Shown here: piece by piece, positions 37,885 to 54,483 of the stretch
How positions within the stretch are numbered: position 1 is the stretch's first letter
How the letters are laid out: the number at the start of each line of letters is the position of its first letter
Assembly (NCBI GenBank): GCA_947628305.1
Contig: CANQZG010000016.1
Span: forward strand, 304-64,303
Length of the DNA: 64,000 nucleotides
Reading direction: 5' to 3'
DNA from: an uncultured Muribaculaceae bacterium
GTDB lineage: Bacteria > Bacteroidota > Bacteroidia > Bacteroidales > Muribaculaceae
Notes under the pieces: generated by a model
Databases searched by the model: none
The model's input: the letters and a program-made list of their open reading frames with translations, nothing else
What the model was told of the DNA's origin: nothing
Program-made: the position numbers and the translations under genes

Positions 37885-40365
37885 TCAGTTGTTCAATGTG
37901 ATTTGGCTTTGGGGTGGGATTGTGACGCGTTTTTGGATGTTGCCGTCAGGGGTGATTGTTGTGACAGTTACTTTGGCGGTCGCTTTTCCGTTGTTTTTGA
38001 TTGTCAGGGCGGCGGGGTTGCCGGGGGCTTGGGTGACGGTGATGTTGTCGCCCTTGATAAATGTTTTAAGGGTATGTCCTATCGAGTTGTTTTGGGCGAC
38101 GGTAAATGTCGCCGATGATTTATTGTCGGAGATATCGGTGGGGGCGGCGAATATCGGTGCGCCTAAGGGGCACTCAATTCCTGAAAGATGACAGACGCTG
38201 TCACCTCTGAAGTTTGCGAGGAATAGGTAGAACGAGCCATCGGGGTCGGGCGCGACTACGCCGTTCCATCCGTCAGGCAGGGACTGGGCGAGCGGGCGCA
38301 TGTCACGCGAGAGGTTACGTGTGGTGGCTGCATCGATATCGCTGTAGTATGTCACGTTACGTCGGTCGATTGTCTCTCCGGGGTTGAACGGGCGTCTTTC
38401 GGTTGAGTGGGATGGGTATAGTTTAGCAGTCCATATCGAGTTGTTTAGCGAGCGGTCGCCGAATGCCATTCTCTTATCGCTGATGGAGACGATGCCAAGC
38501 GCGTTGTCAATGTTGACATAATCGGTGTTGAGTGTTATTTTGTCCTTGTCATCAGACTTGACGTGCAGTCCGTCACCGTAATATAGGGTGCGGTTCTCAC
38601 TTGTAAACGGGTCGGTGCTGATTGCCATGAGTCCCCCTTTCTCGGCTGTGATGACCCCCTCGCGGTTGGTCGTCACGCAGTCGAGGTAGATGAATGCGTT
38701 GCCCGGGGTGGAATATATCGCGAAACGGTTGTTGAGGGTCGAGTCATTGGTGTTGATTTCACCGTTCATTGTGTAGGCGTTACCCTCCAGATGGTATATT
38801 CCGCTGACTACAGGTTTGGCATTGACTTTCGTCCCCTCTGCTTCATACCATCCGAGGATATTCCCCGTGTTGTTGGCGCGGTAGGGAACTATTATTTTGG
38901 CGTTGTCGGCGTTGTTGGGGGTGATATATCCGGTGTAGCTTTTAAGACCGTCGCTCCATGAGAAACAGCTGAAGCGGTCGGGGGTGGATGCCCGCACAAT
39001 GTTCTGTGATTTCAGAAGCCGGGCATCGGAATGGCGGAGATTGAAGTCGTGCCATTCGGTGGGGGATAGCTTGGCTGTTGACAGATAATGGTGCATCAGC
39101 CACGTCATCATGACGCGGTGTCCCTGGACACCCATTCGTCGTGCGCCCACGTCGGGGTTCTGCAGCCATGAGCCGTTGGCCGTGGTGTTCTGACGCGTCT
39201 TTATGGCACGGTATGCAAGGTTTTCAAGCATCAGCGCGTCGGGGTCGCGCAGGAAGCAAGCCATAGTGGAGTAGGACGTGATTTGGTCGAACAGGAACAG
39301 ACTCCAGTCATTGCCGTTGGGCATCGCGAGTTCACCGTCGGCGAGCGCGAGCCAGTTCAGTACATCGGTCATGACGCGTTGGTTATTGTGCATGAGCGCA
39401 TTGGTCGCCCATCTCTCCTTGCCGTGTATACCGAGCTGGAATATTTTCAGGGCAAGCGCGGCCTCGCCGAGTTCCTGCATCACTACGTTCTGATAACTTG
39501 TGTGGAACAAGTTGTGATTCTGGAGGGTATAGTCGTCATATAGGTTCTGTCCCCGGTAAAGGTCGGTGACTCTCACGCTGTCACGTGACGGGTCGATGAT
39601 TGTAAGGTCCCGGGCATCGTCAGGATGGGAATAGCTGTTAATGGCGAATTCCCGTAGTCGTTCAAACCACCGGGGCGCAAGAGGGTCATCGGGAAACAGA
39701 CCGAGCGTGACGGCGAGCACGTCGGCTTCCCATCCGTTCTCCTCGGCCTTGGTGTCTCCGTCGAACCCTGTGGGGATTGTCCTTTCAAGTTCATAGTTGC
39801 ATTCGGCCTTTAACATTGTCTCGATGTGTCTTTTTTGCCTTTCGGTGAGGCTGTCCCACTGGAAGAATGCCGAATAGGCCACCGACATCGCCCACAGCGA
39901 GGATTCCCACACATGGTCATTGACCGAGACGGAACCCCAGTGGTTGTCACCGATACATTTTTTAAGACGGTTGGCCTTGTGGGTCGAGTAGGCGAATACG
40001 AGCGATTTGCGGGCCATTGATTCTATGTCGTCCCATGACACGTCGGCAGGTAGGGTCACTTTGCCTTTGGCATGCCTGGCAAGGAATGCGCAGAGCATTG
40101 ACATGTCGGCGTTAGGTCTGACCCCGCGTTCATCGTTGGCCATGGTGTGTTCCCCCTTGAAGCAACCGCATTCGTCACCTTCGGAGTTAGGCGTGTCGCA
40201 GTCGATGAAATCGTTCTTCATGTAAAGGGAGAAGTCGGCGAGCATCTGTAACAGTCCGTCCTGCATTTCAGGTTCGGGTACAAATCGGTTGCTCGTTGAC
40301 ACGGCTGATGCCGTGAATGAAAACGACAGGGTGATAATGAATAGAAATGATTTTATAATGTTCAT
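37885..40365 (-). CDS. Secreted 826-aa protein, possibly a polysaccharide-lyase/heparinase II-III-like alpha/alpha toroid plus beta-sandwich
   Basis: Signal peptide MNIIKSFLFIITLSFSFTASA from ATG 40365. Helical N-terminal half with LQNHNLFHTSYQNV (an N-H..Y arrangement reminiscent of lyases) and a beta-rich C-terminal half. Function not established. Confidence 0.35.
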   Translation of the reverse strand: MNIIKSFLFIITLSFSFTASAVSTSNRFVPEPEMQDGLLQMLADFSLYMKNDFIDCDTPNSEGDECGCFKGEHTMANDERGVRPNADMSMLCAFLARHAKGKVTLPADVSWDDIESMARKSLVFAYSTHKANRLKKCIGDNHWGSVSVNDHVWESSLWAMSVAYSAFFQWDSLTERQKRHIETMLKAECNYELERTIPTGFDGDTKAEENGWEADVLAVTLGLFPDDPLAPRWFERLREFAINSYSHPDDARDLTIIDPSRDSVRVTDLYRGQNLYDDYTLQNHNLFHTSYQNVVMQELGEAALALKIFQLGIHGKERWATNALMHNNQRVMTDVLNWLALADGELAMPNGNDWSLFLFDQITSYSTMACFLRDPDALMLENLAYRAIKTRQNTTANGSWLQNPDVGARRMGVQGHRVMMTWLMHHYLSTAKLSPTEWHDFNLRHSDARLLKSQNIVRASTPDRFSCFSWSDGLKSYTGYITPNNADNAKIIVPYRANNTGNILGWYEAEGTKVNAKPVVSGIYHLEGNAYTMNGEINTNDSTLNNRFAIYSTPGNAFIYLDCVTTNREGVITAEKGGLMAISTDPFTSENRTLYYGDGLHVKSDDKDKITLNTDYVNIDNALGIVSISDKRMAFGDRSLNNSIWTAKLYPSHSTERRPFNPGETIDRRNVTYYSDIDAATTRNLSRDMRPLAQSLPDGWNGVVAPDPDGSFYLFLANFRGDSVCHLSGIECPLGAPIFAAPTDISDNKSSATFTVAQNNSIGHTLKTFIKGDNITVTQAPGNPAALTIKNNGKATAKVTVTTITPDGNIQKRVTIPPQSQITLNN

Positions 40366-40420
40366 GGTGGGACAAAGGTAATAAAAAACGAGGATGTTGA
40401 ACACATCCTCGTCTCTGATT

Positions 40421-42034
40421 TTACCACATTGCTTCGTGGAATTTCTTTGGTCTCTCCATCAGTTGACGGTAGACGCGGCCATAACCGTCGGTCACTTTTA
40501 TGTCAAGGGTCGAGGTAGGCGATTTTGCCTTGACCTTGAACAGATGGGTGGTGATGGCTGTCAGGCCACCCTTTGACGGTTTTTTACCTGTCGCCATCTG
40601 ATTGCAGTTATAGGAGAGGGCGTGTAGCGGGTCGTATGATGCAAGACGTATCACCGATAGTGGTTTGCCATTTTCAGTCACTTCAATCCTCCATGACGGG
40701 TCATAGTTGAACACATTGATTAGAACCTCGTTGTCGGTGCGCGGGGTCATATATCCCATACTGTATTTTTTCAACGCCACGGGGTCGGCGATTTTGGTCG
40801 AGTCAACGTATGTTGTGTTCATATCGTAGGCCCGGAACTGATAATCTGCCGGGAAATCATAACACTTATAGTAGGCTCGCTCGATTTGGTCGCCGTCCAT
40901 GAGGATTACAAGGTAACCCGCCGGAGAACCGTCACGGCATATATGATTGCCTGAAAGGGCATCGGTATACCAGAATGTACCGCATATTGACGGGATATTG
41001 TGCTCGATGCCGTTTCCACCTTTCAGGGGTATGTTGTTTATGACGTGGGAATGCCCCGAAAGCACCCTGACGTTTGAGAACCCCTTGAGACATTCCTCAA
41101 ACCCCTCGCCGTCGGGTAGACGGTATCGCGCGGGCATTAGCGAGCGGTCTACGTGGAACAGCGGGGCATGCATCGACACTATCAGCGGTGCTGACTTGTC
41201 TTTCACGGTCGCGAGGTCTTTCTTGAACCAATCCATGACATGCTTGGTGAAATCGACACGGAACGTCCGGCTTCCCATTGTGTCGGGTGTCGCCCCGTGG
41301 CTGTCGTAGATGATGTTGTCGAGCACGACATAATGTGCCTCGCCGATGTTGAACGAGTAGTAAATCGGGCCGAACTCGCGTTCAAACGTTTTCTCCGCCT
41401 CACGGTCGGTGTTGAAATAGGGATTATTGTCATGGTTTCCCATCAGGTGATACAGGGGCATATCGATGGCTTGTTCTATTATCTTGACCTTGGCCGGACT
41501 CATGTCGCGTGAACGCCAGTGCTGGTCCCATGTCAGGTCGCCAAGGTCGATTCCTTCCACATGATATCCGGCTGCACGGAGTGAGTCGGCTGTGGCGTTG
41601 ATGTCCTTGACAAACACGGCATATTGTTCCAGGTCTCCGTTGCGACGTGTCAGGTGTTTATCGGAAGTGGCGATGAACGCATGTTTGCGGTCGGTCACCT
41701 TTTTTAATTCGAAGTCCACTGTCTCGGTCTTGTCGGTGGATTCGGTCAACGGTTTCCAGAATACAGGTGTGTTGCCATCCATTGGTGGCGAGTAACCTCC
41801 CGGAGTCGAGACGAATACATATCCGTTCTCTTTTTTTGACGGGAGTTTATAACACCCTTTGCTGTCGGTCACTGCAAGTTCATATCCGTCGGAGACGACC
41901 ACTCCCGCGATTCCTTTCCCCTCGGCGGTCACTCTCCCTGTGACGGATGCCTTTACGCCTTTGCCCTCGGCCTGTATCGCTGTCGTAAACAGCGCGAGTG
42001 ACATCAGTGCGATATTCAATAGTTTTCTGTTCAT
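40421..42034 (-). CDS. Calcineurin-like metallophosphoesterase with an N-terminal CarboxypepD_reg-like domain
   Basis: Signal peptide from ATG 42034 (MNRKLLNIALMSLALF). GRVTAEGKGIAGVVVSDGYELAVTDSKGCY. Phosphoesterase motifs DKH, GDLTWD, GNHDNN and SGHSH. Confidence 0.75.
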   Translation of the reverse strand: MNRKLLNIALMSLALFTTAIQAEGKGVKASVTGRVTAEGKGIAGVVVSDGYELAVTDSKGCYKLPSKKENGYVFVSTPGGYSPPMDGNTPVFWKPLTESTDKTETVDFELKKVTDRKHAFIATSDKHLTRRNGDLEQYAVFVKDINATADSLRAAGYHVEGIDLGDLTWDQHWRSRDMSPAKVKIIEQAIDMPLYHLMGNHDNNPYFNTDREAEKTFEREFGPIYYSFNIGEAHYVVLDNIIYDSHGATPDTMGSRTFRVDFTKHVMDWFKKDLATVKDKSAPLIVSMHAPLFHVDRSLMPARYRLPDGEGFEECLKGFSNVRVLSGHSHVINNIPLKGGNGIEHNIPSICGTFWYTDALSGNHICRDGSPAGYLVILMDGDQIERAYYKCYDFPADYQFRAYDMNTTYVDSTKIADPVALKKYSMGYMTPRTDNEVLINVFNYDPSWRIEVTENGKPLSVIRLASYDPLHALSYNCNQMATGKKPSKGGLTAITTHLFKVKAKSPTSTLDIKVTDGYGRVYRQLMERPKKFHEAMW

Positions 42035-42038
42035 TATT

Positions 42039-42818
42039 TCAATAATTAAAGACTTCATTCAACAGACGTGCCAGGCGGTAACCTGCCAGGACTATGCGCT
42101 TATGTGCGATTTTCTCGGCCTCCAACTGGAATGCGAATGTCTGCGGGCGGTCATATATGCGACCGTTCTCAAACCAGTCGTAGGTCGCTGTTATGGCTTT
42201 ACCTGACTCTGTCACCCAGTCGGCAGGATTACCGGAGGCCATGCGCTCACGTTCGGTATCACTGTATCGGTCGAGCTGATGGGCGAACTCGGTGTAATGC
42301 CACGGGTGATGTGACAGACAGTCCTGGTCCCAGAAGTGGTGAACCTCCGATGGCTGTCCGTCAAGTATAAACTTGGTCCCTTTCTGGTCATATCCTTTGT
42401 AGAACGCATGTCCGGGGCAGTGCATATCGCCGACAAGATGTACGATGAGTTTTATATTTGTGGCAACGGCCGAGTCCGTCAGGTTCCTGTGGTTGCGAAG
42501 ATAGGCCATCGTTGTATTGACCCCTTCGACCGAATCGCGTTTCTTGCTCGGGGTGTAGTTGCCGAGCGAGTCCACGTCAGACGCATGCCATCGGCTTGAA
42601 TGTCTATATTCGGGAGTCCAGCGCACCATGTCCGTCCATGATGCATAATACACGATAGAATGATTGTCGAGATAACGCTCTATGTTGGCCTTGGCCCGCG
42701 GTGTAAGATGTCGCTCGGCGATATAGGCGATGGCGTCATGGCCGAGACGTCCCCATGCTCCCGCCGTCAGGCTTGCCATGACGACGGTGCATGCGGTCAG
42801 TAGATATTTCAGATTCAT
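42039..42818 (-). CDS. S1/P1-family nuclease (secreted)
   Basis: 259 aa. The mature N-terminus WGRLGHDAIAYIAERHL (Trp1 zinc ligand), WHASD, HLVGDMHCPGH and HHFWD are typical of S1/P1. Confidence 0.85.
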   Translation of the reverse strand: MNLKYLLTACTVVMASLTAGAWGRLGHDAIAYIAERHLTPRAKANIERYLDNHSIVYYASWTDMVRWTPEYRHSSRWHASDVDSLGNYTPSKKRDSVEGVNTTMAYLRNHRNLTDSAVATNIKLIVHLVGDMHCPGHAFYKGYDQKGTKFILDGQPSEVHHFWDQDCLSHHPWHYTEFAHQLDRYSDTERERMASGNPADWVTESGKAITATYDWFENGRIYDRPQTFAFQLEAEKIAHKRIVLAGYRLARLLNEVFNY

Positions 42819-42824
42819 TGCAGG

Positions 42825-44177
42825 TTACTTTTGGGGCGCGGTACATTGATAGAAAAGAATGTTGGCGCGACGCGTGCTCGAGGACCCGTCACGTGAGGCT
42901 ATGCCGAGGTAGATTCCTTGGTCGCTGACTTTGATGCCTTCAGGCTCGCACCATCCGGTGGTTGTCAATCCCAACTCTTTCCATTTGTCGGTTTCAGCCA
43001 CAGCTTTCACCTCGGTACGAGGCACACAGATGTTACCTGAATAGTCCAATACAGTGACATAGGCCTTGCATGTGAAGTTGTCAGTGCCCGGGAGGGTGAT
43101 GGCATTTCCTTCGTAGAAATAGATATAGTCCCCGTGAATGGCTGTACCCTGGTGATTGTAGGTGTATATATCCGTCGCCTGGTCGCCACCCCCGGCAATG
43201 GTGAAATGTCCGAGAACCTTGCAATCGTTCAGGTCATAACCTTTTACGACCCTTTCGGTCACGACTCCCTCGACGTTGGTCGATACGGTCATATCTTTCT
43301 CAGGCAATGCGAGCACTTCATCAAGGTCAAACACCCAGAAACATCTCACTCCTTTGCGAGAGCCAATGAATAACCGACGGTTCTCAAAGTCAATTGACAC
43401 CTGTTGGTCATATTCACCGTTCTTGTTCAGGAAGAATGTTTTGCCGGCACAGTTTTCATGCACAGCCCCGGGCTGGAACTCCACGCGGCTGATTGACATG
43501 TTTTCACCGTATTCCCCGCTCGTGGCCATGTTCCCGTTGCTGTTCATCCAGATATAGGTTTTGCCGTCTTCGGCCTCCTCGGCTACAATCTGGGTGCCGT
43601 GACCGAAATAGCGGCAGTCCATGTAGTAGGTCTCGGCCGATTGTCCCGGTGAGCCGGCGCGTGAGACGTAGGTCGAGGTTCCCGCGCCTGCGCTGATTTG
43701 GGAATAATACATTACGCCCGATTTTGAAATGTCAAATCCCTGCATGATGCGTTTGTTGGCCGGTAGGAGCACATCGCGGCTGTATATCAGGTTTTCCAGG
43801 TCGGTGTTCATCAGTGACGATGACACGTCCATGGGCTGTGAGGAAATCAGCGTGACGGTGCATGTGCAGAAATAGCTGCCGGCACGGGCGGTGACAACCG
43901 CGCTTCCGCGGTTGTCGTTTGCCGTGATTACACCCCTGTCATCGACACTCACGATTGATGCGTCGCTTGATGTCCATTTAATGTCGATTGCCGCATCGGC
44001 GGGACGGGGGATGGCCTGTAGTTGGAATGTCTCTCCTTGTGCGAGCATGAGGGCGACCTTGTTCATTTTCAGTCCGCTCATCGGTTCCGGCTTGCTGTCG
44101 TCGGAGCAAGAACCGAAAGCCAATGTCGCAATGAGAAGCGATAGATATAGAAAAATCTGTTTTTTCATGTCGTTCAT
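42825..44177 (-). CDS. Surface lipoprotein: Big_2 Ig-like domain plus a C-terminal beta-propeller-like domain (helveticin-J/TagC-like impression)
   Basis: Lipobox LAFGSCSDD. Big_2 region (KWTSSDASIVSVDDRGVITANDNRGSAVVTARAG). C-terminal motifs MQGFDISKSGVMYYSQ and CEPEGIKVSDQGIYLG resemble helveticin-J-type propellers; this is unverified. The start may be at 44177 or 44168. Confidence 0.5.
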   Translation of the reverse strand: MNDMKKQIFLYLSLLIATLAFGSCSDDSKPEPMSGLKMNKVALMLAQGETFQLQAIPRPADAAIDIKWTSSDASIVSVDDRGVITANDNRGSAVVTARAGSYFCTCTVTLISSQPMDVSSSLMNTDLENLIYSRDVLLPANKRIMQGFDISKSGVMYYSQISAGAGTSTYVSRAGSPGQSAETYYMDCRYFGHGTQIVAEEAEDGKTYIWMNSNGNMATSGEYGENMSISRVEFQPGAVHENCAGKTFFLNKNGEYDQQVSIDFENRRLFIGSRKGVRCFWVFDLDEVLALPEKDMTVSTNVEGVVTERVVKGYDLNDCKVLGHFTIAGGGDQATDIYTYNHQGTAIHGDYIYFYEGNAITLPGTDNFTCKAYVTVLDYSGNICVPRTEVKAVAETDKWKELGLTTTGWCEPEGIKVSDQGIYLGIASRDGSSSTRRANILFYQCTAPQK

Positions 44178-44411
44178 TGTGTTGATGGTGAAAGTTTAGA
44201 GGTTGTTTAAAAATCACGGTTAATTGGCAACCGGGTGTTTTGAGATGGATTTCGCTTGGAGTTGAAGGAGCATAGCGGGCTATGTGACTGAAACTACGGG
44301 CGAAAGACGCTCAAAAGACCCTGGAATTATATCAACGGTTATCAATAGACATCCTCATTTTAATATTACATATCATCATGATGTCTCTTTTGTTAAATCA
44401 CAGTTGCCAGT

Positions 44412-44437
44412 CGGTCACGATGCCCGCATCGCTCCCT
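44412..44437 (-). repeat. 26-nt conserved motif, copy 2 (reads AGGGAGCGATGCGGGCATCGTGACCG on the - strand)
   Basis: Exact reverse complement of 11933-11958. It lies in the 328-nt gap between the BACON and Big_2 genes. Confidence 0.9.
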
Positions 44438-47624: not shown

Positions 47625-47641
47625 CGTTTTTATCTTTTGGG

Positions 47642-50600
47642 TTAGAATGAGAAGTTCAGGCCGAGGGTAAACACGCGTTGCATCGGGTAGGAATATCCGT
47701 CACCCTCGTCTCGGAAATCGCTGTCACCCGATGTAATGACCTCGGGGTCGTAGTTGGGGGCGTGGGTGTGAAGCGGGGTCCATGTTAACAGATTTTCGCC
47801 TGTGAACCACAGCTTCAGGTCTCGGATGCGCATTGCCTTGCATATTTTCTCGGGGAAGGCATATTCCACTGTGAGGGTCTTGAGTCGCAGATAAGACGCG
47901 TTTTGTAGGAATCGGTCGTTGGCGTTGCGTAGGGTGCGTGTGTCACTGTCGGCATTAGCTTGATAGGCAGTGTATTTAGGCCAGTAGGCGGTGTCCCAGT
48001 TGTCAAGTTCCTTTCGGTAAACATCATCGCCGGTGTGGATGTTGAGCATATATCCTTGCGGGCGGTTGTATTGCCCCCAGAAATAGCCTGAATCATAACG
48101 GGGATACCAGTCACGCTTGCCCACGCCCTGAAAAAATGCTGAGATTCCGATGCCGTTCCAGTTTGCTCCGAGGTTGAAACCGTACATGTAACGTGGCGAT
48201 TCGTTGCCTATGATAGTGCGGTCGCCCGGGTTGTCAAGGGTGCCTTCCCCGAAATCAATCACTCCGTCTTGGTTTAGGTCAGCGAACTTCAATGCACCCG
48301 GGCGTGATATTTTGTCGGATGATGACAGGAACGTCTGCACTGCATGTGAGTCGATGTCTTCCTGGTCACGGAAAAGTCCCTCCACGCGGAATCCCCATAT
48401 CTCGCCAATCTCCTTGCCGACGTAATGGTCCGACAGGTTGCCGTTGGGGTTGATGTATTTGGTCACTACAGTCCTGGCGTCCCACACCATTGCCTTGACG
48501 TTGTAGCTGAACGGCTTGCCTAAAAGACGGAAGCTGTCTTTCCACGACAGGGACAGTTCCCAGCCGTCGGTGCGCATCGATGCGTTGTTCCCTTTGGGGG
48601 CGGAGGTGCCGTATACGTCAGGCAGACTCACGCCGACGGTGTACATGTCGGTGGTGTTACGGCGATACCAGTCGAAGCCGAGTCCGAGACGGCTGTTCAA
48701 TACGTCCATGTCGAGTCCGATGTCGTAGGTGGTGGCTTTCTCCCATGTCAGTGACAGGGGAATCGCCCCGGGTGCGGTAGTGTAGGAGCCTAACGCGTCG
48801 CCTATAAGGACTGAAGTCGTGGAAATCTTCATATAATCGATATACTTGTAGGGGTCGATGTTACCGTTGCCCATCGAGCCGGCCGAGACACGCAGTTTCA
48901 GGTTGTCGAGCCATCCACGGGTGCCATCCATGAATTTTTCCTCATTGACGCGCCAGCCTAACGAGGCCGATGGGAAGAACCCCCATTTTGAATTTTCGGG
49001 GAATTTGGACGAACCGTCATAGCGTCCCGACACCTCGGCAAGGTAACGGTCGCGGAAACTATAGTTGACACGGAAGAACGCTCCGGCGTAACTCCAGTCA
49101 TTGCCTCCCGCCTTTGGGTCGGTCGTCACGCCGTCCATCAGTCCGAACGACGGTTTTTCGGGAATTGTCAACCCCTCGCGCTTGATTGTCTGATTGCGGT
49201 ATTTACGTGATTCGACATTCCAGCCACCGAGAAGCGTCAGTGAGTTTCCGCCACGCAATTTCGGTGAGAAACGGGCGTATATGTTGGTTGACCAATAATC
49301 AGTGTCGCCTCGGTAATTCTCGAGTGTGCTGCCTTGGCTCTCGTTCACCCTTATAGGGGTGGTGGGACCCCGGTAACCGGTGTACATGTTGGTCACGCGG
49401 TCGCGGTTAGTGCGGATGAATCGATAGGAGGCGTCGCCCGATAATTGCAGTACGTCCTTGATGATGTCGATTTCGACATTGAATTTTTCGGTGAATGCGG
49501 TCTTCTTCTCCTGTTGATAGCTTGTACCCTCGGCAAAACCCGCGAACCCGCTCTCGACGGCCGCACTACTCCATTGTCCGTTGGGGGTATATATAGTACT
49601 CAACGGTTGACATTTATGTTCCATCATGCGTTGTGGCAACTGAAGCGAGTAATAAAGCATCGGTTGATGGTAATCGGAGACATGCAGGTCCATGTTGTTG
49701 CCGATTCTCAGCCACGGTTTGACCTGGAGATTGCCCTTGGCGCGTATGTTATATTGCTTGAAATTCTCATTACCGACCTTATAGATGCCATCCTGACTGT
49801 AATATCGGCCTGACACATAGTAATTGGACTTGGCTGTGCCGCCCGAGATGCTTAGGTTATGCTCGGTGGAATAGTTGTGGTCTTTGAACCACTCGTCGTG
49901 CCAGTCGGTGTTACCGAAGTATTCATACAGGCCATTGTCGTTCACCCTTATCTTTTCCAGGGAAGGGTCTTTGTCCCTTCGGGCCAGTTCATTGACCCAG
50001 TCCATTGAAAACGGAATGGTGTTGTTGATTGTGGTGTTATAGGGGTTCTGTCCATTATAATAGTTGTCCCATGCATCCATGTAGCCTTTAGTCCATTGAT
50101 AGCCGTTGGTGACGAGGTCGGGTTTGACTGTACGCTGGCGCAGAGAGACGCTTCCGCTGTAGTTGACCTTGGCATCCCCTTTGTGGGCGTCCTTGGTCGT
50201 GATGAGAATCACGCCGAACGCCCCGCGTGCCCCGTATATGGCTGTCGATGAGGCATCCTTGAGCACTGATACGTTGGCGACATCCTGGGGGTTAATCATG
50301 TTCATGTCGCCCTCGACACCGTCGATTAGTATCAACGCTTTCCCGCCTGAACCGATAGAGCCGGTGCCACGGACGTTGACCGAGCCGTTGTGTGTCGGCT
50401 TGCCGTCAACCATGGTGATGTTAAGGTTGGGAATCGCCCCTTGCAGCGCACGCGTCACAGAGGTGTTGGAACGTTCCGACAGCACTTCGGAACCTACCTG
50501 GTCGACCGAGCCTATGAGATTGCGCTTTTTCATGGTGCCGTATCCCACTACGACCACCTCGTCGAGGTCGGTGGTGGCTTGGCGTAGTGTGATTTTCAGG

Positions 50601-50950
50601 TTGCGGTTGTCAGGGGTGACCTCCACTGTCTGTGACTCACAGCCGATATAACTGACCGTGAGCCGGCATGTCGCCGGGGCTTTTAGTGAAAAGTGCCCGT
50701 CGATGTCGGTCGAAGCACCGATACCGGTGCCTTTGACTATCACCGATGCCCCGATGACAGGTTCACCTTCAGTGTCGAGTACAGTTCCGTTGATAATTGC
50801 GTTTGCTTTGCTTTCACTCTGCGTCGCCGGCGTGGCCATGGCGGTCTGTGTCATCCCCAGCGGCGACAGCGACGCTAACGCTAAAATGGCGCAGGCCAAC
50901 TCACGGCGTGAATTGCCATGGTGACGGCTGCGTTTGGTTTTAGGGTTCAT
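47642..50950 (-). CDS. SusC/RagA-family TonB-linked outer membrane transporter
   Basis: 1102 aa. CarboxypepD_reg (INGTVLDTEGEPVIGASVIVKGTGIGASTDIDGHFSL), plug (VVVGYGTMKKRNLIGSV, LQGAIPNL) and a barrel ending FTLGLNFSF. Confidence 0.9.
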   Translation of the reverse strand: MNPKTKRSRHHGNSRRELACAILALASLSPLGMTQTAMATPATQSESKANAIINGTVLDTEGEPVIGASVIVKGTGIGASTDIDGHFSLKAPATCRLTVSYIGCESQTVEVTPDNRNLKITLRQATTDLDEVVVVGYGTMKKRNLIGSVDQVGSEVLSERSNTSVTRALQGAIPNLNITMVDGKPTHNGSVNVRGTGSIGSGGKALILIDGVEGDMNMINPQDVANVSVLKDASSTAIYGARGAFGVILITTKDAHKGDAKVNYSGSVSLRQRTVKPDLVTNGYQWTKGYMDAWDNYYNGQNPYNTTINNTIPFSMDWVNELARRDKDPSLEKIRVNDNGLYEYFGNTDWHDEWFKDHNYSTEHNLSISGGTAKSNYYVSGRYYSQDGIYKVGNENFKQYNIRAKGNLQVKPWLRIGNNMDLHVSDYHQPMLYYSLQLPQRMMEHKCQPLSTIYTPNGQWSSAAVESGFAGFAEGTSYQQEKKTAFTEKFNVEIDIIKDVLQLSGDASYRFIRTNRDRVTNMYTGYRGPTTPIRVNESQGSTLENYRGDTDYWSTNIYARFSPKLRGGNSLTLLGGWNVESRKYRNQTIKREGLTIPEKPSFGLMDGVTTDPKAGGNDWSYAGAFFRVNYSFRDRYLAEVSGRYDGSSKFPENSKWGFFPSASLGWRVNEEKFMDGTRGWLDNLKLRVSAGSMGNGNIDPYKYIDYMKISTTSVLIGDALGSYTTAPGAIPLSLTWEKATTYDIGLDMDVLNSRLGLGFDWYRRNTTDMYTVGVSLPDVYGTSAPKGNNASMRTDGWELSLSWKDSFRLLGKPFSYNVKAMVWDARTVVTKYINPNGNLSDHYVGKEIGEIWGFRVEGLFRDQEDIDSHAVQTFLSSSDKISRPGALKFADLNQDGVIDFGEGTLDNPGDRTIIGNESPRYMYGFNLGANWNGIGISAFFQGVGKRDWYPRYDSGYFWGQYNRPQGYMLNIHTGDDVYRKELDNWDTAYWPKYTAYQANADSDTRTLRNANDRFLQNASYLRLKTLTVEYAFPEKICKAMRIRDLKLWFTGENLLTWTPLHTHAPNYDPEVITSGDSDFRDEGDGYSYPMQRVFTLGLNFSF

Positions 50951-50999
50951 AAGTTATGGTTTAAGGTTAAAGAATTTTCAAAAAAGAATGTGTTGACGC

Positions 51000-52349
51000 T
51001 CAGTCGTCATAGCCGTTGGCTTTCGCTTTCCACGCCAGGGCGAAGATGGCTGTGCCTATAATCGCCATTGCGATGAGTGTGGCGAGTGTGACACCCCAGC
51101 CGGTGTGCTGCACGAGTAATCCGAGACCCCATCCCGAGACGATGGTGCTTCCGTAGCCGAACAGTCCGCAGAAGCCACCGGCGGTGGCCGCCGCTTTCTT
51201 GGTCGCGATGTTGGCCGCCGCGATTCCCACCAGCGCCTGTGGCCCGTAGATGAAGAACCCTGCGCCCATCAGGATGAGAATGGCGACAATCAACGGTGTG
51301 CCGGGTGTGAGATAGTAGAGGGCGACCATGCACACTGCGGTCATCGCCATGCATATCACGCATGTGCGCGGGGCGCGTCCCCCGAACACCTTGTCGGTCG
51401 CCCATCCGGCGACAAGCATTCCGGCGATTCCGGCGACCTCGAATGCCGCGACACTCCATCCGGCGTTACTTATGTCCATGCCGATGTGCTCCTTGAGCAT
51501 CGTGGGACCCCAGTCGAGCACTGCGAAACGGACGATGTAGACAAAGAAATTACCTACCGCGATTGTCCATATAACCGGGTTCATGAACACCTTGCGGCGC
51601 AGGAACGCTTTCATCTCGGCCTTGTTGTCACCCGATGCGGCTTTCCCCGGTTTACCGGTGTTCAGTTCGGGAAGCCCCACCGATGAGGGGGTGTCCCTCA
51701 TGGTGAACGCGAGGACGATACCGCCGATGATTGCGACAGCCGATGGCAGGAGGAAGCACCAACGCCAGTGCTGCGACAGCATCGTGCCGGAGGTGAAGAT
51801 ATTTCCCCAATGGATGCTGACCGCATATCCGCAGAAAATTATGGCAAGTCCCGCCCCGATGGAATGGGATGTGTTCCACAGTGACATTTTGGTCGCCAGT
51901 CGTTCGGGAACGACCCAATGGGTCATAAGGCGTGTACAAGGGGGTACGCCCATCCCTTGGAACCAGCCGTTGAGTACCCAGAACACGCCGAGGACGATAA
52001 CGGCCGATGAAAGACCGAAGCACAGATTGGTGACGCCGCAGAGAATCAACCCCGCCGGCAGGAAAAGGCGTGCACTCGTGCGGTCGCCGATAATCCCGTT
52101 GACAAATTTTGACAGACCGTAGACAAGGCCGTTAAGGGTCAGGAACAATCCTAAGTCGGTCTTTGAAATCCCCATTTCGGAGTTTAAATAGGGCATGGCG
52201 ATGCTGAGGTTCTTTCGCACGAAGTAGAAAAGAGCATACCCGATTATACACGTCACGATGGTGCGCGTCTCCCAATGCCGGAAACTTTTCACCTGTTCCC
52301 CGGTCATGTTGGCGTATGCCTTGTTGGTGCTTGCAGAGGGCGCGTTCAT
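51000..52349 (-). CDS. MFS organophosphate:phosphate antiporter (GlpT/UhpC family)
   Basis: 449 aa, 12-TM pattern. IGDRTSARLFLPAGLILCGVTNL and WRWCFLLP resemble GlpT. Confidence 0.8.
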   Translation of the reverse strand: MNAPSASTNKAYANMTGEQVKSFRHWETRTIVTCIIGYALFYFVRKNLSIAMPYLNSEMGISKTDLGLFLTLNGLVYGLSKFVNGIIGDRTSARLFLPAGLILCGVTNLCFGLSSAVIVLGVFWVLNGWFQGMGVPPCTRLMTHWVVPERLATKMSLWNTSHSIGAGLAIIFCGYAVSIHWGNIFTSGTMLSQHWRWCFLLPSAVAIIGGIVLAFTMRDTPSSVGLPELNTGKPGKAASGDNKAEMKAFLRRKVFMNPVIWTIAVGNFFVYIVRFAVLDWGPTMLKEHIGMDISNAGWSVAAFEVAGIAGMLVAGWATDKVFGGRAPRTCVICMAMTAVCMVALYYLTPGTPLIVAILILMGAGFFIYGPQALVGIAAANIATKKAAATAGGFCGLFGYGSTIVSGWGLGLLVQHTGWGVTLATLIAMAIIGTAIFALAWKAKANGYDD

Positions 52350-53350
52350 CTCTTGTTCGCTTTTGTTTTACGTGACTTTACAGCGGTGTCCTGGGCACGG
52401 TGAAGCGCATCGCGTCCCCAAGGCAAACCTATGAACTCCGACGGATAGTCGGTCTCGATGATGTCGGGCAGTGACAGCAGGTCGCGATGGTAGGCGACTT
52501 TCCTGTCCACGGGGTTCTTTATCTTGTCGGATGTCGCCGTTATGGAGGTCATCGTCATGACGCCGAGTTGATGCAGACGGTCGTAGACATGCTGCATTTC
52601 AGGGTTGACGGCCGTGCGTATGTACGCCATTATGTAGTTCCACGGGATAGGGGATTTATCGTAGGCCTCGAAATGTTCAGGCTTGCTGATTTCAACACAG
52701 AACATGACGTTCCGCAATCCTTTGTTCCAGTAGAACATCGCTTCGTCGAGCGAGCGCACGCTAAGCATGATATTGTGGTACATCGACCAGTCGCCTCCGG
52801 ATGACAGCTGGCGTGCATAGTATTCAAGCGAGGCGCGTTTGACACTGTCGGGGACATTCTTGGTGTTGATATACTTGTTGTCAAAATTGAAGACGACCTT
52901 GTCCTTTCCCCATTCGAGCATCTGTTTCAACGACGGGATTTTATAGGGCGTCAGGTTGCCGGCGCGGTCAACGAGGTTGAATCCCTGAAGCTGGTCAAAG
53001 GTATAATCGGCTACGCGGCCCTTGCCGTTGGTGGTGCGGTCGATTGTGAGGTCATGCATGAGCACCGGCACGCTGTCGGCGGTGAAACTGAAGTCGATTT
53101 CAAAGAATGTCGGCATCAGCGAGAGGGTCTTTTCACATGATTCGATACAGTTTTCAGGATAGCCGGGCATCATCCCGCCCCGGTGGCCGCTGACGATGAT
53201 GTCGCGGTCGGGAGAATAACGGAAATAGGCCTGCAGCTCGTCAATCGAGTTGACCTTGACCGTGTGTGCCCCGGGAATCTCTCCCAGGACACACGCGGCT
53301 GTGGCCACATTAATACCTAAAAACAGTGCAATTCTTTTTATTGTAACCAT
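52346..53350 (-). CDS. Glycerophosphodiester phosphodiesterase (GDPD) family, exported
   Basis: From ATG 53350 (MVTIKRIALFLGINVATAACVLG). VSGHRGGMMPGYPENCIESCEKT and FEIDFSFTADSVPVLMHDLTIDRTTNGKG. Overlaps the MFS start by 4 nt. Confidence 0.8.
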   Translation of the reverse strand: MVTIKRIALFLGINVATAACVLGEIPGAHTVKVNSIDELQAYFRYSPDRDIIVSGHRGGMMPGYPENCIESCEKTLSLMPTFFEIDFSFTADSVPVLMHDLTIDRTTNGKGRVADYTFDQLQGFNLVDRAGNLTPYKIPSLKQMLEWGKDKVVFNFDNKYINTKNVPDSVKRASLEYYARQLSSGGDWSMYHNIMLSVRSLDEAMFYWNKGLRNVMFCVEISKPEHFEAYDKSPIPWNYIMAYIRTAVNPEMQHVYDRLHQLGVMTMTSITATSDKIKNPVDRKVAYHRDLLSLPDIIETDYPSEFIGLPWGRDALHRAQDTAVKSRKTKANKR

Positions 53351-53355
53351 GGAAA

Positions 53356-54420
53356 TCAGTCGTTGAATGGAAGTAGGTGCTCGTAGGTGAACGCCTCCCA
53401 CGGCATGTCGGCCTCAGCCTTGCCTCTGTCAAGAATCTCGACGATGTGCATCAGCAAGGGGAACTCCTTGAGGTCTACAAGTCCCAGTTCGGCCTTACGG
53501 CGGATTGCGTTGCCCATTATGCGGGTGATGACAAGGCTCTCGAGAGTGATGCCGGCCAATGCCTCTGTCACCTGGTCATAATCGAGCCCTTGGCCCATCA
53601 GCACGCCACAACGGCGTGTGCGACCGCTGAATATTGTCACATACAGGTCGCCGAGGCCGATGCATTCGCTCTCGAATGTGCCACCCTGCAATTGCATGAG
53701 TGCATGGGTCTCGCGCACGGCTTGCGTGAACGTGCCCGCCTGAGAGTTGTAATGTTGGGGCTCCTGCTCGCCATGCCACCGCGTGTTGAGTCCGACGGCG
53801 AGTGTGACGGCCATCGCGTAGGCGTTTTTCAGTGCGACCGCGCTCTCGAGACCGATGACATCGTTGGTGAGGGATATGTGATAGTAGGGCCGTTGCATCG
53901 CCTCTTTCATCATGCGCAATGCCTTGTTGTCCTTTCCGCAGAACCCAACCTCGGTCGGGTCCATGAACACGAGTTCGTAGGATGTGCAAGGGCCTCCGAT
54001 TGCACAGATGTCACGTGTGATGCCTCGTTTCTCTAATTCGCTAATCCAGTATCCGGGGTAGGACAGGAGGGAGCCGTCCTCGGTTGCGTGCAGACCTTTG
54101 GTGACTGACAGCACCGGCATCGACGGGTCGAGTTGTGTCAGGATTTCGTCAAGGAACCACTCGACGCCGAACGATGATACGCCCCCGATGACGAATGCCG
54201 AGCCTTTGACCACCTCTTTCCATTCCTTGAAATAGTGAAAATGTACGTTGGCGGGAAATGCACGGCAGAATTTCTCGTGTTTCCCGGTCTTGATATATCC
54301 GTCTATGATTTCATCGTCAAGACAAGTGCCGACAATGTGTACTTCGTTACCGTTTTCCGCTGCCGGGAATGCGAGGGCCGACCCCATCATTCCCGCTCCG
54401 ATAATTGTTATTTTTTTCAT
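53356..54420 (-). CDS. NAD(P)H-dependent glycerol-3-phosphate dehydrogenase-like protein (divergent GpsA family)
   Basis: 354 aa. Rossmann motif MKKITIIGAGMMGSALAF, then IGGPCTSYELV and AVALKNAYAMAV, which parallel GpsA motifs. Confidence 0.6.
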   Translation of the reverse strand: MKKITIIGAGMMGSALAFPAAENGNEVHIVGTCLDDEIIDGYIKTGKHEKFCRAFPANVHFHYFKEWKEVVKGSAFVIGGVSSFGVEWFLDEILTQLDPSMPVLSVTKGLHATEDGSLLSYPGYWISELEKRGITRDICAIGGPCTSYELVFMDPTEVGFCGKDNKALRMMKEAMQRPYYHISLTNDVIGLESAVALKNAYAMAVTLAVGLNTRWHGEQEPQHYNSQAGTFTQAVRETHALMQLQGGTFESECIGLGDLYVTIFSGRTRRCGVLMGQGLDYDQVTEALAGITLESLVITRIMGNAIRRKAELGLVDLKEFPLLMHIVEILDRGKAEADMPWEAFTYEHLLPFND

Positions 54421-54475
54421 GTTTTATGTAGGTTAAAGATTCTTCTTGGTTGCGTGCACGTGCACATTGACGATG

Positions 54476-54483
54476 CAAATATA
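54476..54483 (-). promoter_or_regulatory. Candidate -7 box (TATATTTG) for the gpsA-like/GDPD/MFS/SusCD operon
   Basis: CAAATATA on the + strand, 56 nt upstream of the ATG at 54420. The 12-bp palindrome GTGCACGTGCAC (54454-54465) lies between the box and the start. Confidence 0.4.

Follow-up and report, generated by a model that had tools for sequence, protein, structure and literature searches.

A SusC/SusD operon with phosphoesterases and a sugar-alcohol-phosphate module in an uncultured Muribaculaceae bacterium suggests use of teichoic-acid-like polymers

Clusters that combine SusC/SusD pairs with phosphodiesterases, phosphomonoesterases and organophosphate transporters have been described as Pus systems, and Pi depletion induces them in Flavobacterium (PMC8115612). 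The general kind of system considered here is therefore not new. The locus under study, in a 64,000-nucleotide stretch of DNA from an uncultured Muribaculaceae bacterium (hereafter the window), shares with Pus systems the SusC/SusD pair, phosphodiesterases and an organophosphate transporter. However, it has a LacI-type regulator with a candidate operator, whereas the Flavobacterium clusters respond to Pi depletion (PMC8115612). The initial annotation knew of no characterised PUL with this composition, and our literature search likewise found no description of one, nor any characterised Bacteroidota system for sugar-alcohol-phosphate polymers. We consider it moderately probable that this Sus-like operon targets a glycopolymer of other microbes with phosphodiester linkages and alditol phosphate units, the best candidate being a glycerol-phosphate teichoic acid or related phosphoglycan.

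The ORF listing, together with Pfam and NCBIfam scans, gives ten minus-strand genes running from 54420 to 37885, with intergenic gaps in operon order of 5, -4, 49, 17, 20, 328, 6, 4 and 55 nt. The same-strand run and its domains were thus as first annotated, but the genes had been counted as eleven; the 328-nt gap was confirmed, but the last gap exceeds the 50 nt given as the limit for all others. Three more ORFs follow downstream on the same strand, for an ECF-sigma/OMP-barrel fusion (after a gap of 45 nt), a CotH protein (88 nt) and a 164-aa product (12 nt). The gene content and intact catalytic motifs support the original proposal of a Sus-like system centred on phosphodiester and alditol-phosphate chemistry.

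Three of the products are phosphoesterases with signal peptides. The GDPD-family phosphodiesterase (52346..53350, minus strand, as for all ten genes) probably starts at M18 of the longest ORF and matches PF03009 (56 bits) in its N-terminal half only, with HRG and HD motifs legible in the sequence. Among known structures it matches 3mz2 best (E 7e-59), whose deposited name is glycerophosphoryl diester phosphodiesterase, while alignment to all other GDPD structures, including 5t91, is confined to the first ~100 residues; 883 homologues with 70-82% identity occur across many Bacteroidales. The GDPD enzyme GlpQ removes Gro3P units from wall teichoic acid, and D-Ala or sugar substituents block its action (PMC7086022); such a block would account for the presence of esterases in related loci. 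The S1/P1-family zinc phosphoesterase (42039..42818) matches PF02265 over its full length (116.8 bits) and has the mature N-terminus WGRLGH, with the zinc-ligand motifs W1/H6 and HxxGDxHxPxH legible; a homologue with 31% identity occurs in related locus L022. The MetallophosN-Metallophos-MetallophosC phosphoesterase (40421..42034; PF16370 130, PF16371 84 and PF00149 37 bits) retains legible DxH, GDxxD, GNHD and GHxH motifs and has homologues in L013/L021, L018 and L029.

These last two enzymes could also be read as tools for extracellular nucleic-acid use, with S1/P1, a 2',3'-cyclic-nucleotide-phosphodiesterase-like metallophosphoesterase and, in relatives, EEP enzymes digesting DNA or RNA imported by SusC/SusD. 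The full-length S1/P1 match with its zinc ligands, a weak SpdA-like match of the metallophosphoesterase (33 bits), the recurrence of S1/P1 and EEP in L022 and three EEP genes after the L012 SusC/SusD pair are consistent with this reading. It is nevertheless quite improbable: nucleoside, ribose or deoxyribose transport or catabolism genes are absent from the operon and all related loci examined, S1/P1 and EEP are missing from several of these loci (L013/L021, L023 and L030), and what is conserved on the cytoplasmic side is a set of alditol-phosphate enzymes with an organophosphate antiporter. Nucleic acids, initially listed among possible substrates, thus find no support in the conserved partners.

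In the window, the cytoplasmic dehydrogenase is NAD(P)-dependent and glycerol-3-phosphate-dehydrogenase-like (GpsA-like; 53356..54420), with PF07479 (63.6 bits) and PF01210 (48.7 bits) above cut-off and the ALKN and GDL..T..GR motifs kept. Its nearest structure is 1txg, deposited as NAD(P)+ glycerol-3-phosphate dehydrogenase (E 3.9e-33), and it is 88-94% identical to its counterparts in L006, L022 and L024. The transporter (51000..52349; MFS_1 174 bits) is an MFS protein of the organophosphate:Pi antiporter type (GlpT/UhpC/PgtP-like), beyond which a finer specificity cannot be assigned from sequence. The earlier names GlpT and GpsA hold at the level of domain type but not as equivalog identities: the top NCBIfam score of the GpsA-like protein is 99.7 bits against a cut-off of 257, and all transporter scores lie below their cut-offs (TIGR00881 342.5/407.75, GlpT 317.6/632.55, UhpC 311.8/564). 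That GDPD, MFS and dehydrogenase each fall below every equivalog cut-off counts against the teichoic-acid reading, as does the independent assortment of MFS clade and dehydrogenase type among loci, which makes the transported compound uncertain. Because of the unmet cut-offs, and because the same GDPD and MFS (75-76% identity) adjoin a mannitol-1-P dehydrogenase in a common gut species, glycerol-3-phosphate is a likely but not secure imported product.

The SusC-type TonB-dependent transporter (47642..50950; TIGR04056 853.6 bits against a cut-off of 368) has CarbopepD_reg_2, Plug and barrel domains and lacks an STN domain. The SusD-family lipoprotein (45843..47624; PF07980 156 bits) has relatives with 32-77% identity in 15 genome loci. 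Two further lipoproteins are putative surface binding proteins. In the first (44506..45822), a profile check confirmed the BACON domain (PF13004 27.6 bits); we take its mature N-terminus, CSSDD, to resemble a surface-export signal. The protein is kept after SusD in L006-L010, L013, L021 and L022, and its C-terminal half (aa 233-449) is found again in three more L022 genes, for a 797-aa protein, an EEP phosphoesterase and a GLUG/GDSL protein. The second (42825..44177; mature N-terminus CSDDS) proved on profile and structure checks to combine Big_2 with a beta-propeller (AlphaFold pLDDT 92) related to Phage_RBD_prop, and is the most constant non-SusC/SusD partner among related loci.

The propeller lipoprotein itself scores 21.6 bits with PF21311 (Phage_RBD_prop), just below the Pfam cut-off of 23.7, and this model matches 31 of the 42 members of the propeller family (best E 2e-12). 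The family profile in turn matches receptor-binding proteins from the phages P68, phi11 and 80alpha (E 8e-7 to 4e-3), and the lipoprotein appears to share its family with the platform domain of receptor-binding proteins from Staphylococcus phages. Phage phi11 uses GlcNAc on wall teichoic acid as its receptor, with the propeller as the modelled binding site (PMC4901313). Against the teichoic-acid reading, however, a Foldseek search with the propeller gave no preference to phage receptor-binding proteins. Distant relatives carry the propeller on the C-terminal side of esterase or beta-helix catalytic domains and of dockerin scaffolds, as would be expected of a binding module, and the CE2/GDSL, GH28-like or dockerin modules fused to some of them might indicate plant-wall ligands. 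Also counting against the teichoic-acid reading, no obvious surface endo-acting enzyme was identified in the locus. Beyond the region first annotated, a 1494-aa secreted protein with three GLUG-like beta-helix repeat units (56701..61185, minus strand), in which Pfam finds only a faint Glug motif, has 25-30% similarity to GLUG and GLUG/GDSL proteins inside related operons L013, L021, L022 and L031 and is probably associated with the system.

Related loci have in common a core of SusC, SusD, the BACON lipoprotein and the Big_2 and propeller lipoprotein. Around it stand phosphoesterases (GDPD, MetallophosN/C, S1/P1, EEP), an organophosphate antiporter and a sugar-alcohol module that differs by lineage: G3P-dehydrogenase-like in the window, and elsewhere mannitol-1-P dehydrogenase, GlpD with a G1P-dehydrogenase-like protein, or a ribitol/arabitol transporter with FGGY kinases. 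L006 has the order LacI, GpsA-GDPD-MFS-SusCD-BACON, and L022 the order LacI, GpsA-MFS-SusCD-BACON-propeller-GLUG-EEP-S1/P1-GLUG/GDSL. L013/L021 read MPE-GLUG/GDSL-SusCD-BACON-propeller-MtlD-GDPD-MFS-GlcN6P isomerase-SASA esterase, and their MtlD reaches the equivalog cut-off (502 bits against 368). In L023 and L030, GDPD, MFS, GDSL or esterase and mannitol-type PTS genes surround SusCD and the propeller, while L028 holds GlpD-like, SusCD, G1P-dehydrogenase-like, OPA MFS, HAD phosphatase, propeller and metallophosphoesterase genes. L011 (Puia) reads DeoR-SusCD-GDPD-RbtT/DalT polyol transporter-dehydrogenase-two FGGY kinases, the transporter scoring 563 bits against a cut-off of 375. Because the arrangement recurs in independent genomes, the sequence comparison indicates that it is no chance juxtaposition. 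The alditols classically found in teichoic acids are glycerol, ribitol and mannitol, and among the substrates first listed the teichoic-acid type gains most from these swappable modules and the phage-type propeller. Two points count against it: to our knowledge, mannitol-phosphate polymers are rare among known ones, and the Alistipes orthologues comprise SusCD-BACON-propeller only, under ECF/anti-sigma control, with no phosphoesterase nearby.

The regulator noted upstream by the initial annotation is encoded divergently from the operon (55434..56507, plus strand; PF00356 52 and PF13407 82 bits, both above cut-off), and no NCBIfam model reached its equivalog cut-off for this LacI-family protein. 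Orthologues with 78% and 54% identity, also divergent, adjoin the GpsA-like gene in L006 and L022, respectively. A DUF2442/HTH ORF and a second small ORF beside it, read as DUF4160-like, lie between the LacI gene and the operon. The Bacteroides -7 consensus is TAnnTTTG, and a candidate box of this kind, TATATTTG (54476..54483, minus strand), stands 55 nt upstream of the GpsA-like ATG; of four such motifs on the minus strand in 37885-54632 it is the one in the upstream intergenic region, and no further box occurs in the internal gaps of the operon. L006 and L022 have equivalent boxes, TACATTTG and TATCTTTG, at the corresponding position. The stretch from the -7 box to the start codon contains a perfect 12-bp palindrome, GTGCACGTGCAC (54454..54465), the sole perfect match within the window and a candidate LacI operator. 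The identical palindrome stands in the corresponding place before the GpsA-like gene of both L006 and L022, so that a palindrome downstream of the -7 box is kept in all three loci and ties the regulator to the operon.

This control bears on a Pus-type role, in which SusC/SusD would import small phosphodiesters such as glycerophosphocholine and glycerophosphoglycerol mainly for phosphate or G3P, and not a Gram-positive wall polymer. Comparable clusters induced by Pi depletion are known in Flavobacterium (PMC8115612), phospholipid head groups are classical GDPD substrates, and a GpsA-like and MFS pair (89% identity) occurs without SusCD in another organism. We regard this role as unlikely, as the regulator is LacI-type with its own candidate operator and no sign of phosphate control was found. 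Moreover, two surface binding-type lipoproteins, a GLUG beta-helix protein and the enzyme-fused shared module in L022 suggest a polymer, and the mannitol and ribitol modules of related loci mismatch phospholipid head groups.

The last of the ten genes (37885..40365) encodes an 826-aa (826/839) secreted protein without a Pfam or NCBIfam family. Its AlphaFold model (pLDDT 69) confirms the toroid-like fold first described, as an (alpha/alpha)-toroid with a beta-sandwich and an Ig-like domain, and Foldseek retrieves PL8, PL17, PL15 and heparinase-type lyases (E 3e-9 to 1e-4, TM 0.3-0.44). The modelled fold appears polysaccharide-lyase-like. No GH family was detected by Pfam or NCBIfam scans in the ten genes or the LacI gene, so the initial statement that no canonical glycoside hydrolase is present stands at Pfam level; at the level of structure the lyase-like fold is CAZyme-like. 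If the protein were the key enzyme, the locus could be an ordinary PUL for an acidic polysaccharide, with glp-type genes merely adjacent or serving a side substituent. The lyase-like toroid and beta-sandwich, the position of the gene on the same strand 55 nt downstream and GH31, GH2 or GH3 genes in L021 and L014 fit such a PUL, but we judge it very improbable. A terminator-like hairpin (40384..40416, minus strand; 14-bp stem and T run), followed by a TACCTTTG -7 box at 40373-40380, separates the gene from the phosphoesterase gene, and homologues with 62-69% identity stand in non-PUL contexts. The protein is therefore probably non-core, and its gene a loosely attached neighbour with its own transcription unit, contrary to its earlier inclusion in the locus. 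The gene is also absent from the more distant loci examined (L007, L008, L013, L021-L023, L028 and L030), the repeated companions of SusCD are phosphoesterase, MFS and dehydrogenase genes, and the glp-type genes lead the operon, since operator and promoter sit before the GpsA-like gene.

Under the favoured alditol-phosphate polymer reading, the nine genes from 54420 to 40421 would be transcribed from a single promoter, lying before the first gene and overlapping the candidate LacI operator, and the lyase-like gene downstream would probably form a separate unit. Polymer fragments would be captured by the BACON and the Big_2 and propeller lipoproteins, perhaps aided by the upstream GLUG-repeat protein, and would pass through SusC/SusD into the periplasm, where the GDPD, the S1/P1-type zinc enzyme and the MetallophosN/C enzyme would split them into alditol phosphate units. 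Glycerol-3-phosphate would then enter the cytoplasm via the organophosphate:Pi antiporter and be oxidised to DHAP by the NAD-dependent G3P-dehydrogenase-like enzyme. The locus suggests that polymers of sugar-alcohol phosphates, for example teichoic acids from Gram-positive neighbours, may serve this gut bacterium as substrates.

The minus-strand run from 54420 down to 37885 was defined from the ORF list together with Pfam and NCBIfam scans of the window. It holds ten genes rather than the eleven claimed in the initial annotation, and the genes named there are present with the domains described. From the upstream end, they encode a NAD-G3P-dehydrogenase-like (GpsA-like) protein (53356-54420; PF01210, 48.7 bits against a cut-off of 23.1, and PF07479, 63.6 against 25), a GDPD with a probable start at the signal peptide MVTIKRIALF... 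(52346-53350; PF03009, 56.4 bits against 23.6, profile positions 1-117 of 244), an MFS protein of the organophosphate-antiporter type (51000-52349; MFS_1), SusC (47642-50950; TIGR04056, 853.6 bits against 368) and SusD (45843-47624; PF07980, 156 bits). These are followed by a BACON lipoprotein (44506-45822; PF13004), a Big_2 and propeller lipoprotein (42825-44177; PF02368 and, weakly, PF21311), a putative S1/P1 nuclease (42039-42818; PF02265, 116.8 bits against 29.5, profile positions 1-257 of 258), a MetallophosN/Metallophos/MetallophosC phosphoesterase (40421-42034; PF16371, PF00149, PF16370) and an 826- or 839-aa protein of no family (37885-40365). The intergenic gaps, in the same order, are 5, -4, 49, 17, 20, 328, 6, 4 and 55 nt. 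Active-site motifs are legible in the translations: catalytic HRG and HD in the GDPD; the mature-protein W1/H6 and HxxGDxHxPxH zinc-ligand motifs in the S1/P1 protein; DxH, GDxxD, GNHD and GHxH in the metallophosphoesterase; and GxGxxG, ALKN and GDL..T..GR in the dehydrogenase. The last also aligns to the solved G3P dehydrogenase chain 1txg (E 3.9e-33) with KN and GDL..T..GR kept.

The arrangement resembles a classical PUL in several respects. The SusC and SusD genes are adjacent, 17 nt apart, as in PULs, and they are accompanied by binding-type surface lipoproteins, periplasmic enzymes, an inner-membrane transporter and a dedicated regulator, as in the Sus paradigm. However, Pfam detected no GH, PL or CE family in any of the ten proteins, in agreement with the earlier reading that no glycoside hydrolase signature is present. 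The nine-gene operon proposed below is without a GH or recognised CAZy family, and its degradative enzymes are phosphoesterases. Further, classical PULs are more usually controlled by hybrid two-component, SusR or ECF/anti-sigma regulators, whereas the window locus has a LacI-type regulator; ECF/anti-sigma genes or an STN-bearing SusC are found in its relatives in Alistipes and on the metagenome contigs L021 and L023.

A precedent is offered by the PusCD clusters of Flavobacterium, in which the partners of SusC/SusD are not CAZymes but phosphodiesterases and phosphomonoesterases, predicted to be periplasmic, together with an organophosphate transporter of the inner membrane (Lidbury et al. 2020, PMC8115612). 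The window locus likewise pairs SusCD with phosphoesterases and an organophosphate transporter in place of CAZymes, and its SusCD, GDPD, S1/P1, Metallophos and OPA-type MFS genes lie in one same-strand run, which is the gene content of a Pus-type cluster. The general kind of locus has therefore already been described (PMC8115612). What defines a Pus cluster is that it is induced when phosphate is depleted, and no substrates are known for these clusters (PMC8115612). The window locus is set apart from them by a LacI regulator with a conserved candidate operator, a carbon-catabolic dehydrogenase as the first gene, BACON and phage-RBP-like propeller surface proteins, and relatives that swap alditol modules.

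The three 'glp-type' proteins (dehydrogenase, MFS and GDPD) score below every NCBIfam equivalog cut-off. With a best score of 99.7 bits (NF000942) against the GpsA cut-off of 257, the dehydrogenase is, as judged from its sequence, a divergent paralogue of GpsA. The MFS protein is predicted to be of OPA type, with near-equal scores for the models of GlpT (TIGR00712, 317.6 against 632.55), UhpC (311.8 against 564) and the PgtP subfamily (TIGR00881, 342.5 against 407.75). The GDPD reaches 17.4 against 254 (NF008354), 41.4 against 264 (NF006989) and 48.2 against 450 (NF053857) for the GlpQ/UgpQ equivalogs. Only one solved structure, 3mz2 (a glycerophosphoryl diester phosphodiesterase by its deposition title), matches it over the full length, and all other GDPD structures, the 5t91 chain included, match only its first ~100 residues. 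Because the equivalog scores fall below cut-off and the structural matches of the GDPD are mostly N-terminal, we regard the exact substrates as predictions, although the families are sound.

In B. subtilis and S. aureus, GlpQ removes Gro3P exolytically from unsubstituted wall teichoic acid (PMC7086022), and the window locus resembles GlpQ-GlpT recycling in Firmicutes in that it also couples a GDPD-family enzyme with an organophosphate antiporter. However, the window GDPD belongs to a Bacteroidales-specific subfamily, 70-82% conserved over many Bacteroidales, that aligns to 5t91 over ~80 N-terminal residues only, and the window system would take up a foreign polymer through outer-membrane SusCD.

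The GpsA-like protein is 88-94% identical between loci, compared with 60-77% for SusD and 43-83% for the MFS, and its 90%-identity cluster has 495 members. Given this conservation, the GpsA-like gene may be strongly constrained or may have spread horizontally in recent times. It also occurs beside an MFS gene in places that lack SusCD. On L024 (9062-12400) and also on L025-L027, a GpsA-like gene of 89% identity is found with an OPA MFS gene among purine-biosynthesis genes and without SusCD. On L024 they are preceded by a gene for a 307-aa secreted protein with weak Phage_RBD_prop (PF21311) and glutamine cyclotransferase matches, which in hhalign gave no significant match to the propeller family of the window locus (probability 0.9%).

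The LacI-family regulator gene (55434-56507) is divergent from the operon, and its product has both the HTH domain (PF00356, 52.2 against 27) and the periplasmic-binding-protein-like domain (PF13407, 82.3 against 35.1). The region upstream of the GpsA-like gene contains a TATATTTG box (54476-54483), followed within a few bases on its downstream side by the perfect palindrome GTGCACGTGCAC (54454-54465), the sole perfect copy in the 64-kb window. The same palindrome occurs at the same place in the two close relatives L006 and L022 (LacI 78% and 54% identical), after TACATTTG and TATCTTTG respectively. This comparative evidence is good, and it points to GTGCACGTGCAC as a candidate LacI operator overlapping the transcription start. 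No second copy was found in the intergenic DNA before susC or the propeller gene. Matches from a sigma-70 promoter scan were set aside, as that model is not applicable to Bacteroidetes promoters.

Between the LacI gene and the operon (54633-55290, minus strand) lie a DUF2442/HTH ORF and, upstream of it, a second small ORF that we take to be DUF4160-like; the pair is followed by a perfect 17-bp-stem hairpin (54574-54610). The cassette looks like a lineage-specific insertion, because the corresponding spacer in L006 is different and shorter (about 370 nt) and shows no sign of it. Neither an ORF nor an Rfam family nor a -7 box is present in the 328-nt gap between the BACON and propeller genes (44178-44505), which is confined to the window lineage and the near-identical genome L001, with 20-40 nt at this place in other loci. 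The 49-nt internal gap also has no -7 box. Since the internal gaps have neither a -7 box nor an Rfam match and the 328-nt gap is lineage-specific, we propose that the nine genes from 54420 to 40421 would form one transcription unit, ending at a hairpin (40384-40416; 14-bp stem and T run) in the 55-nt gap before the 826-aa gene. The hairpin is followed by a TACCTTTG box.

The 826-aa protein had been listed as an operon member and described as toroid-like. The fold description was right: the AlphaFold model comprises an alpha/alpha toroid, a beta-sandwich and a C-terminal Ig-like domain, and its top Foldseek matches are all toroid and sandwich polysaccharide lyases (E 3e-9 to 1e-4), namely chondroitin AC, xanthan and hyaluronate lyases, PL17 and other alginate lyases, and heparinase III. 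The matches have a probability of 1.0, yet TM is only 0.3-0.44 and the model pLDDT 69. From comparison with PL8, PL15, PL17 and heparinase II/III-like lyases, the protein may be called lyase-like in fold. Pfam, NCBIfam and a PDB sequence search found no sequence family for it. Its homologues, which share an invariant LQNHNLFHTSYQN segment, form a large uncharacterised family of secreted toroid and sandwich proteins from metagenomes of the gut and elsewhere; the small number of records that carry a name are Bacteroidaceae MAGs. Many of them, and most in the set P0002-P0120, are about 1350 aa long, with an additional N-terminal HpiC1-like module, C-terminal DUF5013 or, sometimes, a dockerin. Its operon membership is not well supported: because homologues 62-69% identical sit in unrelated non-PUL neighbourhoods, the hairpin and TACCTTTG box occupy the 55-nt gap, and the gene joins SusCD only in near-identical L001, it is better separated from the operon as a neighbour or recent add-on. 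Synteny and the hairpin led us to reject a role as core PUL enzyme.

The adjoining downstream genes, also on the minus strand, encode an ECF sigma (regions 2 and 4)/outer-membrane beta-barrel fusion (36271-37839) and a CotH-kinase-family protein (34926-36182), a pair conserved only in L001. Farther off, the window contains a tmRNA gene (7501-7900; tag GENNYALAA) adjoining a SAM-II (long-loop) riboswitch (8031-8092) upstream of an ORF at 8202-9530.

The AlphaFold model of the 450-aa propeller protein (pLDDT 92) places a Big_2 domain ahead of a propeller of ~23 strands. With 21.6 bits (E 1.8e-4), the protein falls just short of the cut-off of 23.7 for PF21311 (Phage_RBD_prop), a profile matched by 31 of 42 propeller-family members at E<=1e-3 (best 2.1e-12). 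A profile of the propeller family in turn matches 6iab, 6iac, 9m7x, 5efv and 6v8i (E 8e-7 to 4e-3), all of them receptor-binding proteins of the Staphylococcus phages P68, phi11 and 80alpha. On these profile matches, the link to the phage receptor-binding platform domain appears firmer at the family level than for the window protein. The phi11 receptor is GlcNAc on wall teichoic acid, with the propeller site modelled and not observed (PMC4901313). The likeness to phi11 Gp45, 80alpha gp61 and the P68 tail fibre lies in the Phage_RBD_prop matches, but these span at most ~100 of ~330 propeller residues, and the window model may, by our own count, have six blades rather than five. In addition, the phage proteins are trimeric tail proteins, whereas the window protein is a monomeric Big_2-tethered lipoprotein. 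In Foldseek searches of the PDB and a viral library, Big_2 domains and generic propellers dominate and phage receptor-binding proteins are not top-ranked, so that these searches weigh neither for nor against the phage link. A tblastn search of 50,697 phage records with the propeller protein gave no match, and PDB sequence searches with the three uncharacterised proteins returned nothing useful.

Members of the propeller family are few, with 195 cluster representatives among 1.84 billion. Its invariant residues are Q146, D149, H193, D263, R278, E356, E411, E413, K416 and R436. In distant members the propeller lies C-terminal to a CE2/GDSL esterase, to a GH28-like beta-helix or in dockerin/Big_2 proteins; this position as a C-terminal appendage favours a binding module over a surface enzyme, and the varied fusions mean that ligand specificity may vary inside the family. 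The BACON and propeller lipoproteins both carry Cys-Ser-(Ser)-Asp-Asp after the lipobox, which we take to resemble the Bacteroides surface-export signal. Residues 233-449 of the BACON protein recur in three more genes of L022, encoding a 797-aa protein, an EEP phosphoesterase and a GLUG/GDSL protein, which suggests that its C-terminal half could be a shared substrate-binding module. By analogy only, the propeller, GDSL and GDPD domains of the window locus and its relatives may be compared with the UmbA receptor-binding proteins of Streptomyces umbrella toxins, whose C-terminal domain families include five-bladed propellers, GDSL domains and a GDPD domain. A single receptor was characterised in that study, a polymer of teichuronic-acid-like type that is joined to wall teichoic acid (PMC13274773).

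Related loci were anchored on SusD, the propeller protein and the GDPD, and window proteins were mapped onto them by tblastn. Two of the relatives share the LacI gene and the GpsA-like dehydrogenase. L006, from a human-gut Bacteroidales (SusD 77%), reads LacI / GpsA-like (94%)-GDPD (82%)-MFS (83%)-SusCD-BACON, and the metagenome contig L022 reads LacI (54%) / GpsA-like (88%)-MFS-SusCD-BACON-propeller-GLUG-797 aa-EEP-S1/P1-GLUG/GDSL. A mannitol-type module occurs in L013, a Bacteroidales MAG from water-deer rectum, and in L021, in the order MetallophosN/C-GLUG/GDSL-SusC(STN)-SusD-BACON-propeller-mannitol-1-P 5-dehydrogenase (502 bits against 368)-GDPD (70%)-MFS-GlcN6P-isomerase-like-SASA esterase-GH31-GH2. 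Similarly, in the common gut species of L031, PHP-like-MtlD (476 bits against 368)-GDPD (75%)-MFS (76%) is divergent from ECF sigma-GLUG-SusCD. L023 carries ECF/FecR-SusC-(SusD fragment)-GDPD-BACON-propeller-MFS-HPr-EI-GT4-esterase-Mannitol_dh-family dehydrogenase-PTS EIICBA-GlcN isomerase/PIG-L, and the metagenome contig L030 carries SusCD-BACON/propeller-PfkB beside MFS-GDSL-EI-GDPD-HPr-PTS. These two SusCD-bearing loci (L023, 12725-14408 and 17716-19485; L030, 15517-20397) thus have a complete PTS set of HPr, enzyme I and EIICBA, adjoining the mannitol dehydrogenase or GDPD gene. Such a set is unusual for Bacteroidota, to which the hosts presumably belong.

Other lineages carry further modules. 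The environmental locus L028 (propeller 32%) has GlpD-like-SusCD-glycerol-1-P-dehydrogenase-like (178 bits, below cut-off)-OPA MFS (59%)-HAD phosphatase-propeller-purple-acid-type metallophosphoesterase, and that of Puia (L011, SusD 43%) has DeoR-SusCD-GDPD-RbtT/DalT-family polyol transporter (563 bits against 375)-2-hydroxyacid dehydrogenase-two FGGY kinases. Sphingobacterium (L012) has FecR-SusCD-three EEP phosphoesterases, Prevotella (L018) has SusCD-BACON-two MetallophosN/C-PAP2, and Alistipes (L007-L010) has ECF/FecR-SusCD-BACON-propeller only. The constant theme of these gene orders is SusCD together with binding lipoproteins, phosphoesterases, a transporter for organophosphates or polyols and an enzyme of alditol(-phosphate) catabolism, with the alditol differing by lineage between glycerol, mannitol and ribitol/arabitol. 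Teichoic acids are built with these alditols. The esterases (GDSL, SASA) and GlcNAc-related genes of the relatives are consistent with the known substituents of teichoic acids; D-alanyl and glycosyl groups stop GDPD-type exo-cleavage of wall teichoic acid (PMC7086022).

Beyond the LacI gene, the window encodes on the minus strand a 1494-aa secreted protein (56701-61185) with a signal peptide and three GLUG-like beta-helix repeats. It has no Pfam family above threshold, and its repeats are similar to GLUG and GLUG/GDSL proteins whose genes lie within related SusCD operons; it is probably a member of the system. A T9SS C-terminal domain was suspected on this protein and dropped, as no NCBIfam model matched.

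The identity of the imported product is less direct. In L031 the window-type GDPD and MFS, at 75-76% identity, are found beside MtlD, while in L022 and L024 the GpsA-like gene is accompanied by a 43-46% identical MFS. The clade of the MFS is therefore not tied to the type of dehydrogenase. One explanation is that the antiporters accept a range of compounds, which their family permits; the other is that more than one alditol phosphate is present in the polymers. For the window locus, glycerol-3-phosphate would be the most economical reading of the imported product. The rus loci of Bacteroides likewise use SusCD for a non-classical, phosphate-linked nutrient source and are reported to be centred on ribose (bioRxiv 10.1101/574913). 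In contrast to rus, the window locus has no ribose or nucleoside catabolism gene in the Pfam and NCBIfam scans.

Gene content, motifs, synteny, the family relationship of the propeller and the conserved palindrome are direct observations, from which we infer localisation, substrate, order of action and effector as follows. The BACON and propeller lipoproteins would capture the polymer at the surface, possibly helped by the GLUG protein, and SusCD would import it. The GDPD, S1/P1-type and MetallophosN/C phosphoesterases would then cleave it in the periplasm, glycerol-3-phosphate would be antiported against Pi and oxidised by the NAD-linked enzyme to DHAP, and a breakdown product would lift LacI repression. 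It is probable that SusCD here serves phosphodiester-linked organophosphate nutrients, as a source of carbon as well as phosphorus. For the more specific reading, that the locus is a SusCD system for an alditol-phosphate polymer, the sequence evidence inclines us only slightly in favour. More tentatively, and with somewhat less than an even chance in our judgement, Bacteroidota may possess a dedicated modular SusCD-locus family for Gram-positive teichoic acids and related alditol-phosphate glycopolymers, with a constant outer-membrane module (SusC, SusD, BACON protein and phage-RBP-like propeller lectin), interchangeable phosphodiesterases and an alditol-specific cytoplasmic module. The last would handle glycerol-P via G3P dehydrogenase, GlpD or G1P dehydrogenase, mannitol-P via MtlD, and ribitol via a polyol transporter and kinases, and the window would hold the LacI-controlled glycerol-phosphate version. 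No characterised Bacteroidota teichoic-acid utilisation locus was found in the full-text literature that could be searched, an absence that is weak evidence because most subscription journals were outside reach.

Teichoic acids account for a large share of Gram-positive cell-wall mass and represent a large reservoir of carbon and phosphorus in organic form; lipoteichoic acid, in addition, has immune activity. To our knowledge, the gut degraders of teichoic acids are largely unknown. If the proposed function is true, the Sus paradigm would be widened from glycosidic to phosphodiester-linked polymers, and a phage receptor-binding fold would be tied to a bacterial nutrient-capture protein. Further, cross-feeding from dead Gram-positive cells would become open to genetic tests through susC, the gene for the GDPD, and LacI with its candidate operator. 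Whatever the substrate, the swapping of alditol modules is a clear and testable comparative pattern.
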